Part shown: in pieces, positions 36,747 to 38,456 of the stretch | How the letters are laid out: every line of letters begins with the position of its first letter | Position numbering within the stretch: the first letter of the stretch is position 1 | Source: Hyphomicrobiales bacterium | GTDB lineage: Bacteria > Pseudomonadota > Alphaproteobacteria > Rhizobiales > Aestuariivirgaceae | Reading direction: 5' to 3' | Length of the DNA stretch: 64,000 nucleotides | Assembly (NCBI GenBank): GCA_043768765.1 | Contig: JAYVKC010000002.1 | Coordinates: 18,206 to 82,205, forward strand | Notes under the pieces: generated by a model | The model's database searches: none | Seen by the model: the letters and a program-made list of their open reading frames with translations, nothing else | Told to the model about the DNA's origin: nothing | Translations under genes and position numbers: made by a program

Positions 36747-37790
36747 TTAACCAGGGTTTGCAATCCAATTTTGCGTACGAAGCCGATCATAGGCAATGCC
36801 AATTTGCCGAAACGAGAAACGCTTCTTGTGATCGTTCCAGCCGTGTGTTTTTTCTACGGCCTCGCTTAACGAAACTGCACTTTCTCGGGCAGCCACCCAA
36901 TGAACAGTAGACAGCAATTCGAGTCCAAACGGCGTTTCAAAACCTTCGACGAGCGTCGCCACCCTATCAAAGTGTGAGACGGTCTCATGCTTGCCGGCCA
37001 GAAACAACTCAGCCTCCTTGAACGCGCCCGGCACGAGCTCCAGCTCCTTTTCTGGCAAATCGCCGCCATCTGCGTAGCCAGACACGAGATGACCCTCGAT
37101 TGCTTTTAGCACATGGCTCAAGTTCTTGGCATAAGGGCCATATGGCGCTTTCTCAAACTTCAGGCGAAGCGGTTCTCCTGCTTCCTGCATGAAGTACATG
37201 AGCTTGTGGATTTCGAGAAGACTGACGAACGGGTCCATCAATCCGCCGAGGTATCTGTGCATCAAGGCCACGAGTGCCGCGCGCCCAGGTGTCATGTCGG
37301 GCACGTCGCGCGCCTTGAAATTGGCTGGAGGTCCATTGGGTTCGTAGATGACGACTCGCAGGTCATCGACACCGCGCAATGCGGCCTCAATCCGTGGCCG
37401 CACTTCGGACCAATCAAGACCGCCCAGTCCGCTGCCGAGCGGCGGGATGGCAATTGAATTGATGCCACGCTCACGGATTTCTTCCGACAAGGCACGAAGG
37501 CCGGAGTCAATATCCTCCATCCTGCTCTTGCCGCGCCAGTGGCGCTTCGTTGGAAAGTTGATGATGAACTTCGGGTTCGTCAGGGTGGCAGTTTCGTAAA
37601 CAAACATCCGGCCCGGTTGCACTTCGTCCCGGCGGCAAGCGGCTTCATAGGCTTTGAAATTGGCAGGGAACCTTTCCTTGAATTGCAATGCAACGCCACG
37701 GCCCATGATGCCGACGCAATTCACCGTGTTGACGAGGGCTTCGACATCCGCCGTCAGCAAGTCTCCCTTGGTGAATTCAATCATGCTCAT
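36747..37790 (-). CDS. darG: DarG antitoxin (macrodomain ADP-ribosyl-DNA hydrolase with C-terminal DarT-binding domain)
   Basis: 347 aa. N-terminal macrodomain [37 protein letters not shown], then about 190-aa C-terminal domain. 6 nt downstream of darT. Confidence 0.75.
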   Translation of the reverse strand: [347 protein letters not shown]

Positions 37791-37796
37791 CCTCCC

Positions 37797-38456
37797 TCAA
37801 TAGTACCAGTGATTGCACTTTTCGACCACTGGCTTGTGCGACGCACCCTTCAGGGCATCTGTTATCTTTGCAAGCACTCCGCTTGGGGGTGAAAAAGGTT
37901 GGTCGAGATATCCAATCCGTTCAATCATGCGCCAGGGAAACGCTTTTTGCAGCAAGAATTCCGACTGCTTGGCTTCCTTCACCGCTGCTGCGCGAAAGTC
38001 TGTTGCGGCAACAAAGTCCCAGTTTATTTCGCCGAGCTGCTCAATGCCAGTGCGGAACCGCGCGTAAACGGCACCAGCGTTCGACAATGAAACCGCCCAT
38101 TGATGGCCGTTCGCTTCCGCCCATTGGACGACCTGATGCAAGTCAGCTTCCAAATGAACGATGGGCTTTTGCCCGCCTTTGTATTTCAATGCAGCGTCAT
38201 TAGCGCAGTGAATGACATAAAGCATGATTGAACGCGGACACAGATAGAACGGCACATAATCGCCAACGAAAGTACCTGCATGGCAGTCAACAGGCAATGT
38301 GAGCCGTCGTTGTTTGATGCTCTCCATGCCGATCACCGCTCCACCCTGTCGCTGCGTCATCACAGAATCCGGCAGCAACCCGCCCTCACCCACAATCGAT
38401 GCAAGGTTATCGACATGGACAATGTGGTAGATTTTGGGTTGGGCGGGAACGGACAT
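37797..38456 (-). CDS. darT: DarT toxin (DUF4433 DNA ADP-ribosyltransferase)
   Basis: 219 aa. KIYHIVHVDNLASIVGEGGLL N-terminus, GDYVPFYLCPRSIMLY ARTT-like motif and SEFLLQKAFPW region match DarT family hallmarks. Confidence 0.75.
   Translation of the reverse strand: MSVPAQPKIYHIVHVDNLASIVGEGGLLPDSVMTQRQGGAVIGMESIKQRRLTLPVDCHAGTFVGDYVPFYLCPRSIMLYVIHCANDAALKYKGGQKPIVHLEADLHQVVQWAEANGHQWAVSLSNAGAVYARFRTGIEQLGEINWDFVAATDFRAAAVKEAKQSEFLLQKAFPWRMIERIGYLDQPFSPPSGVLAKITDALKGASHKPVVEKCNHWYY

Follow-up and report, generated by a model that had tools for sequence, protein, structure and literature searches.

Two adjacent minus-strand genes of an uncultured alphaproteobacterium raise the question of whether they form a complete DarT-DarG toxin-antitoxin (TA) system, to which class such a system would belong, and whether the genes around it, above all the alkB gene directly upstream, have anything to do with it. 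The genes lie in a stretch of 64,000 nucleotides (nt) from a Hyphomicrobiales bacterium (GenBank assembly GCA_043768765.1, contig JAYVKC010000002.1, positions 18,206 to 82,205), hereafter the window, whose own positions are used below. An earlier reading of the DNA made without database searches (the sequence-only reading) had proposed the darT-darG pair and presented it as uncommon in its host group and set among unusual neighbours. Here, we found that the locus is very probably a complete cassette of the DarTG2 class, as judged from the predicted proteins, and that it is a typical member of a well-studied family, for which the features offered as unusual fail.

A predicted DarTG2-class toxin-antitoxin cassette

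The toxin candidate darT (37797-38456, minus strand) is an open reading frame (ORF) of 219 amino acids (aa) with an ATG start, and is predicted to encode a DarT2-type ADP-ribosyltransferase acting on single-stranded DNA (ssDNA). Its product matched the NCBIfam equivalog NF048013 (toxin_DarT) over the entire profile (1-204 of 204; 204.8 bits against a cut-off of 150; 1.1e-60), as well as Pfam PF14487 (DarT, formerly DUF4433; 1-201 of 201; 175.3 bits against a cut-off of 22.5; 1.7e-51) and, end to end, the PADLOC DarT model (195.1 bits, 2.6e-58). Among solved structures, DarT of Thermus sp. 2.9 (7omv) aligned with residues 4-189 in a phmmer search (1.5e-28) and DarT of Mycobacterium tuberculosis (7yk3_A) matched at 1.3e-16. 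A profile built from 14 DarT sequences recovered the same two enzymes from the solved structures with better scores (3e-37 and 9.5e-21, respectively), and no transferase other than these two DarT2 enzymes matched it, even at E<=10.

The antitoxin candidate darG (36747-37790, minus strand; a 347-aa ORF with an ATG start) follows darT on the same strand. Its product matched the NCBIfam equivalog NF048014 (antitoxin_DarG) over the whole profile (1-338 of 338; 461.9 bits against a cut-off of 250; 1.3e-138) and the PADLOC DarG model (1.3e-136). Two domains could be distinguished. The N-terminal macrodomain (residues ~1-155), a putative ADP-ribosyl-thymidine glycohydrolase, was found by Pfam Macro (PF01661; residues 20-132, 3e-25) and by the solved macrodomains of M. 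tuberculosis DarG (5m3i; N-terminal 155 residues, 1.9e-53) and Thermus aquaticus DarG (5m31; residues 3-155, 3.7e-52). The predicted DarT-binding domain at the C-terminus (residues ~166-337) aligned over residues 166-337 with the C-terminal domain of M. tuberculosis DarG that was crystallised bound to DarT (7yk3_B, 1.1e-24). With the E-values obtained for the two NCBIfam models, a chance match is excluded for both DarT and DarG.

The curated NCBIfam, PADLOC and Pfam models thus bear out the naming of the pair in the sequence-only reading over the full length of both proteins. That reading had also given the coordinates and the minus strand of both ORFs exactly, and every peptide it quoted was found unchanged in the translations, with KIYHIVHVDNLASIVGEGGLL at residues 8-28, GDYVPFYLCPRSIMLY at residues 65-80 and SEFLLQKAFPW at residues 165-175 of DarT, and the DarG peptide at residues 6-42. 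Two of the checks that it had suggested came out in its favour: the DarT (DUF4433) and Macro profiles gave significant matches, and, when aligned with the proteins of Thermus and M. tuberculosis, DarT has the catalytic E166 and R51 and DarG its catalytic lysine at the expected positions.

Two classes of these systems are told apart by their antitoxin, which is a single-domain NADAR protein in the guanine-specific DarTG1 and a macrodomain joined to a DarT-binding domain in the thymidine-specific DarTG2 (PMC11543638). Since the antitoxin of the window has the latter two domains, the pair would belong to DarTG2. In the window, darT and the macrodomain darG behind it share a strand and are separated by a Shine-Dalgarno-bearing spacer of 6 or 12 nt. 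The order of the two genes is that of the Thermus systems (T. aquaticus and Thermus sp. 2.9; 7omv-7on0, 5m31/5m3e), in which DarG likewise has two domains.

The residues of the Thermus DarT active site have been assigned individually: H13, T15 and N19 contact the adenine ribose, R51 polarises nicotinamide adenine dinucleotide (NAD+) and abstracts a proton, Y71 stacks on the nicotinamide, M78 stabilises the oxocarbenium, H119 locks the thymine and E160 is the catalytic glutamate (PMC9967889). In our alignment, where the Thermus chain carries one additional N-terminal residue and the E160A mutation, H13, N19, R51, Y71, M78 and E160 correspond to H11, N17, R51, Y71, M78 and E166 of the window DarT. 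H11, R51, Y71, M78 and E166, together with N126, are invariant in all 14 homologues aligned. The DarG motif FPTKRHW is the counterpart of FPTKKHW in the T. aquaticus alignment, which places K82 at the catalytic lysine (K80 of T. aquaticus) and W85 at the thymine-stacking tryptophan (W83) in the numbering of the 347-aa ORF; the role of the lysine is described for the T. aquaticus protein (PMC9967889; PMC11543638).

The start codon of darG needs a small correction. The junction of the two genes reads ...TGG TAC TAT TGA GGGAGG ATG AGC ATG ATT GAA..., and GGGAGG (37791-37796, minus strand), read from the sequence of the spacer as the Shine-Dalgarno element of darG, touches the first ATG with zero spacing. 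Its distance to the second ATG at 37784 is 6 nt, which is optimal. Moreover, in the alignments the second ATG coincides with residue 1 of DarG from T. aquaticus and with the beginning of the M. tuberculosis protein, and it was the choice of an independent gene caller. On these three grounds we place the start at 37784; this is the likely true start and would give a protein of 345 aa, in which the catalytic lysine and the stacking tryptophan become K80 and W83. The distance of 6 nt between the genes given by the sequence-only reading holds for the first ATG of darG, but the real spacer is probably 12 nt.

Both genes are intact, adjacent and full-length members of their families, with the catalytic residues kept. 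Ratios of nonsynonymous to synonymous substitution (dN/dS), calculated by the Nei-Gojobori method against three homologous pairs with 76-84% amino-acid identity, ranged from 0.055 to 0.093 (0.06-0.07 for darT and 0.06-0.09 for darG); the values are approximate, with synonymous sites near saturation. Even so, both darT and darG are clearly under strong purifying selection.

By analogy with the characterised systems (PMC9967889; PMC11543638; PMC11481870), DarT would bind NAD+ and move ADP-ribose onto N3 of thymidine in a short ssDNA motif, which would stall replication. The macrodomain of DarG would hydrolyse the ADP-ribosyl-thymidine bond by means of the lysine in FPTKRHW, and its C-terminal domain would bind DarT and occlude the DNA groove; this dual neutralisation by DarG, and the anti-phage role of DarTG, have been described previously (PMC11481870). 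Were this balance disturbed, for which phage infection is the most plausible cause, free DarT could modify both phage and host DNA, and the infection would be aborted.

Insertion of the cassette among core genes

Directly upstream of darT lies alkB (38491-39105, minus strand), separated from it by a spacer of 34 nt (38457-38490, minus strand) that forms the left edge of the cassette. The right edge is the 19-nt spacer (36728-36746, minus strand) between the darG stop and the probable GTG start of a small downstream gene. All of them belong to a block of nine minus-strand genes (31115-39105: an SPFH protein, two orphan proteins, a membrane protein, an extracytoplasmic function (ECF) sigma factor, the small gene, darG, darT and alkB), which is flanked by two heat-shock operons on the plus strand, hrcA-grpE (29302-31104) and dnaK-dnaJ (39283-42511), just as the sequence-only reading had described it.

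Comparison with the closest relatives shows what is old and what is new at this site. By DnaK, these are three genomes with 97% (L090), 94% (L091) and 93% (L092) identity; the best named relatives are metagenome-assembled genomes (MAGs) of Rhizobiales/Hyphomicrobiales (90%) and an Aestuariivirga species (89%). In all three closest relatives, alkB is divergent from dnaK-dnaJ and darTG is absent. DNA homology to L090 covers hrcA-grpE and alkB-dnaK-dnaJ, ends at 38508 near the 3' end of alkB and restarts at 36719 inside the small downstream gene, whose orthologue in L090 adjoins grpE. As both alkB and the downstream gene are kept in relatives without darTG, they are resident core genes. On this comparison, the segment of about 36720-38507 is a 1.7-kb accessory insertion that carries darT and darG only, and the position of darTG between alkB and the downstream gene is a coincidence. 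The claim of the sequence-only reading that alkB is an unusual neighbour therefore does not hold: its divergent arrangement with dnaK is conserved in close relatives without darTG.

The GC content at third codon positions of darT (0.57) was somewhat lower than that of the flanking core genes (0.64-0.70), that is, the gene is slightly AT-shifted. No direct or inverted repeats marking integration were found flanking 36720-38507, only short matches at chance level.

A second lineage (L087-L089; DarT 84% and DnaK 90-91% identical) has the same order of dnaK, alkB, darT and darG, followed by other downstream genes, and the first bases 3' of the alkB stop are conserved with it. This shared junction suggests either a single older insertion with subsequent losses or a transfer of the cassette along with flanking DNA.

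Occurrence and mobility of DarTG

A search with the window DarT yielded 3,683 proteins at E<=1e-5, the best 120 of which had 63-100% identity to it; Mesorhizobium, Agrobacterium tumefaciens, Tepidicaulis, Labrys, Breoghania, Stappia and Hoeflea are named among these 120, and several of the proteins are already annotated as DarT by NCBI. With one genome per species and two narrow peptide patterns, a species-level scan confirmed at least 571 DarT relatives. Of the 80 best species-level loci, at least 31 come from Alphaproteobacteria, in a ranking biased towards relatives of the query, itself an alphaproteobacterial protein. Among these 31 are Methylocystis, Oryzibacter, Hoeflea, Asaia, Bradyrhizobium, Afipia, Caulobacter, Sphingomonas and Erythrobacter as well as members of Acetobacteraceae, Rhodospirillales and Micropepsaceae, and DarT proteins of 51-68% identity with an adjacent DarG occur in many Hyphomicrobiales, Rhodospirillales, Acetobacteraceae, Caulobacterales and Sphingomonadales. 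The statement that DarTG is uncommon in alphaproteobacteria thus has to be withdrawn.

The pairing of the two genes is almost invariable. In 76 of the 80 best species-level loci, DarG is encoded directly after DarT at a distance of about 12-30 nt; three of the remaining loci reach a contig edge and one is truncated after the macrodomain. The truncated one, a Thermoleophilia MAG (L081, 10600-12400), has a darG frame that stops just past the macrodomain, with the DarT-binding domain missing or disrupted, and also bears homologues of the helicase and the methylase of L084, one of the sister loci described below. We then searched up to 10 kb on each side of the 80 loci with AlkB, the downstream ORF, the sigma factor, the anti-sigma candidate, DnaK, DnaJ, GrpE and other proteins of the window; none of the 80 has alkB or any other of the queried neighbours.

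Other alphaproteobacterial systems (Mesorhizobium, A. tumefaciens, Tepidicaulis, Labrys, Stappia, Hoeflea, Methylocystis and Bradyrhizobium, among others) have the same architecture and spacing as the window pair, with DarT 58-68% and DarG about 72-76% identical where measured. On the other hand, their DarT proteins have 213 aa and lack a 6-residue C-terminal insertion of the window protein, and their genomic contexts are unrelated. The same insertion, which also makes the C-terminal segment longer than that of Thermus DarT, is common to the closest clade of the window DarT only.

Within the sister clade L083-L086 (76-78% identity), a gene for a PhdYeFM-type antitoxin of 69-71 aa lies 2-11 nt upstream of darT (9780-9989 in L083 and 5894-6109 in L084; also in L085 and L086). 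These cassettes are part of an island with two tyrosine integrases, a TnsA/ResIII helicase, an N6_N4 methyltransferase and an SNF2 helicase, and the arrangement PhdYeFM-darT-darG may be a three-gene variant or stacked TA/defence cargo. DNA similarity between the window and the sister-clade cassettes is limited to darT and darG. Integrases like those of L083 and L084 were matched three times in the 80 loci, in a test too insensitive to gauge integrase linkage. In addition, 21 viral or prophage contigs of IMG/VR (L093-L113) encode DarT relatives with up to 67% identity to the window DarT, which agrees with a spread of the cassette by phages.

The window contributes a further intact DarTG2 cassette, carried by an uncultured lineage of Hyphomicrobiales close to Aestuariivirga, which is itself classified in Hyphomicrobiales (Alphaproteobacteria). 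Its value lies mostly in annotation, and standard pipelines would already give both genes their correct names. It also offers a clean natural example of darTG as a minimal two-gene mobile unit, which is missing from the nearest relatives, stands between core genes here and is part of an integrase-bearing island in a related MAG.

Role of the cassette and alternative explanations

No observation contradicts the reading of the pair as a DarTG2 cassette, but several qualify it. First, the cassette sits among core genes, outside any recognisable defence island in this genome. Second, no promoter-like or terminator-like site was found in the 34-nt alkB-darT spacer or in the darT-darG spacer, in a scan of 30400-39400 whose counts equalled the shuffled expectation. 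Third, two active-site histidines of Thermus DarT, H65 and H119, are replaced in the window DarT by Gly65 and Asn126. Finally, an AlphaFold2 model of DarT was unusable (mean pLDDT, the predicted local distance difference test score, of 36.6) with a shallow input alignment of 14 sequences comprising only close homologues (>=63% identity). The ADP-ribosyltransferase fold with an extended ARTT loop, which forms the ssDNA groove in DarT, is for the window protein a prediction from sequence homology to Thermus DarT over residues 4-189.

The first of these bears on what the cassette is for. With the same chemistry, the pair could serve as an addiction or stabilisation module, or as a regulator of growth or replication, instead of in phage defence; we consider this the most serious alternative, a plausible one that is nevertheless distinctly less probable than defence. 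DarT of M. tuberculosis marks ssDNA at the origin, which would suit a regulator, and DarTG of that species is reported to control stationary-phase growth via ADP-ribosylation of ssDNA (PMC12170906). A stabilising function has a precedent in Vibrio cholerae, where DarTG also limits the loss of its mobile element (PMC11481870). The location of the window cassette outside a defence island agrees with a role of this kind, and so does its presence at the same site in L087-L089, which suggests long residence. However, darTG is absent from the three nearest relatives and is therefore dispensable. Sister copies have restriction/helicase-type genes and integrases as neighbours or are carried by viral contigs, which is the usual signature of defence cargo. 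Defence and addiction or growth control are, moreover, not mutually exclusive. In the M. tuberculosis system (Rv0059/Rv0060; 7yk3, 5m3i), the macrodomain and the C-terminal DarT-binding domain of DarG both match the window DarG; the M. tuberculosis pair adjoins dnaB and its DarG is essential, whereas the window pair is an accessory insertion beside alkB.

N-alkyl lesions in ssDNA are the substrates of AlkB-type enzymes, and alkB, darT and darG could on this basis be imagined as a functional three-gene unit, in which AlkB removes N3-thymine adducts oxidatively or the expression of the pair is linked to alkylation. It is true that alkB and darT share a strand, with darT beginning only 34 nt after the end of alkB and neither a terminator nor a promoter predicted in this spacer, and that the alkB-darT junction recurs in L087-L089. 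Nevertheless, we regard such a unit as very unlikely. The divergent arrangement of alkB and dnaK in three relatives without darTG implies that alkB was present first, no alkB homologue was found within 10 kb of darTG at any of the 80 other loci, sister copies of darTG are preceded by a PhdYeFM gene instead of alkB, and DNA homology among the DarTG copies comprises only darT and darG. We therefore rejected alkB as a part of the DarTG system, given its presence in relatives without darTG and its absence near the 80 loci. Co-transcription of alkB and darTG is a separate matter and is possible, because neither a terminator nor a promoter was found between alkB and darT. That darTG has become part of the transcription unit of alkB, which would couple the TA balance to a DNA-repair gene, or that AlkB removes N3-thymine ADP-ribose independently of the antitoxin, would be a further step and is even less probable than the three-gene unit.

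The substitutions in the active site raise the question of the target base. An asparagine at the position of the thymine-locking H119 might suggest a DarTG1-like system or another variant specific for guanine or cytidine, not a thymidine-specific DarT2. This is highly improbable: the antitoxin, whose type defines the class (PMC11543638), is a macrodomain DarG instead of a NADAR protein; the only solved transferases matched are two DarT2 enzymes, from Thermus and from M. tuberculosis; and the thymidine-modifying DarT of M. tuberculosis likewise carries Asn at the H119 position. The DarTG1 systems of Escherichia coli C7 and Geobacter lovleyi (DarT1-NADAR) do share a related ADP-ribosyltransferase fold and reversible ADP-ribosylation of a DNA base (PMC11543638), but they have guanine specificity and a single-domain NADAR antitoxin, whereas the window antitoxin consists of a macrodomain and a C-terminal domain, with no NADAR present.

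M. tuberculosis DarT is without histidine at both positions in question, where the alignment shows Ser and Asn, and Gly65 and Asn126 are for this reason compatible with the class. They may bear on the DNA motif and not on activity. Apart from them, the equivalents of H13, R51, Y71, M78 and E160 and the FPTK(K/R)HW lysine motif are common to the window pair and the Thermus systems. The TNTC motif targeted by Thermus DarT is not transferable to the window DarT, whose own target motif is not predictable from Gly65 and Asn126. With Gly and Asn at these two positions, the protein could serve as a comparison sequence in studies of DarT2 motif specificity.

Finally, chromosomal TA genes often decay and no dedicated promoter was detected for darTG, but a non-functional remnant is hard to reconcile with two ORFs that are full length against the profiles and keep all catalytic residues, with dN/dS below 0.1 for both genes, and with the strong Shine-Dalgarno element ahead of darG, and is highly improbable.

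Genes and signals around the cassette

The small downstream gene probably extends over 36332-36727 (minus strand), with a GTG start at 36727, 131 aa and a position 19 nt after the darG stop. A mechanically called ORF with a TTG start (36332-36802) would share 56 nt with darG; the alignments with homologues begin at residue 1-3 of the 131-aa version. The sequence-only reading had labelled this gene DUF3052. The protein by itself falls below the threshold of that Pfam family (PF11253; E 0.011, 16.1 bits against a cut-off of 22.7), but a distant relationship is evident at the level of its own family, which has 3,525 cluster representatives at E<=1e-3 and consists of proteins of about 135-145 aa with the N-terminal motif AGYSGTPLxxKLG: 23 of 40 aligned members matched DUF3052 at E<=1e-3, the best at 1.3e-7. 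A profile of the family gave nothing significant against PDB. By these comparisons the gene is assigned as a distant DUF3052 relative and a core gene unrelated to the TA pair.

Next on the minus strand is an ECF-type sigma factor (35728-36300; Sigma70_r2 and r4_2 domains), which overlaps by 4 nt a multi-pass membrane protein of 229 aa; the pair spans 35042-36300. The membrane protein matched no Pfam family, and the two are probably a sigma/anti-sigma pair. They are followed by two orphan proteins (34260-35003 and 33009-34220) and an SPFH/Band-7 protein of 590 aa (31115-32887), all on the minus strand. L090 and L091 are without the ECF sigma factor, membrane, orphan and SPFH genes at the corresponding site. 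A scan of the whole window with Rfam gave no matches.

In the alkB-dnaK intergenic region, CTTGAA followed by CCCCCTATATA (39121-39152, plus strand) presumably resembles an alphaproteobacterial RpoH (sigma-32) promoter of dnaK; a strict search with the sigma-32 consensus, which is that of E. coli, gave no exact match for the dnaK promoter. An imperfect 16-nt inverted repeat (39123-39138 and 39177-39192) also lies across this region. Finally, alkylation-repair genes are loosely grouped around dnaKJ: besides alkB (38491-39105, minus strand), there are an Ada-like gene (44256-45104, minus strand), whose product combines HTH_18 and DNA_binding_1 as a methyltransferase/regulator, and an HhH-GPD glycosylase gene (about 45654-46307, plus strand). 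In L092, alkB, the Ada-like gene and DUF2244 are found in a similar neighbourhood.

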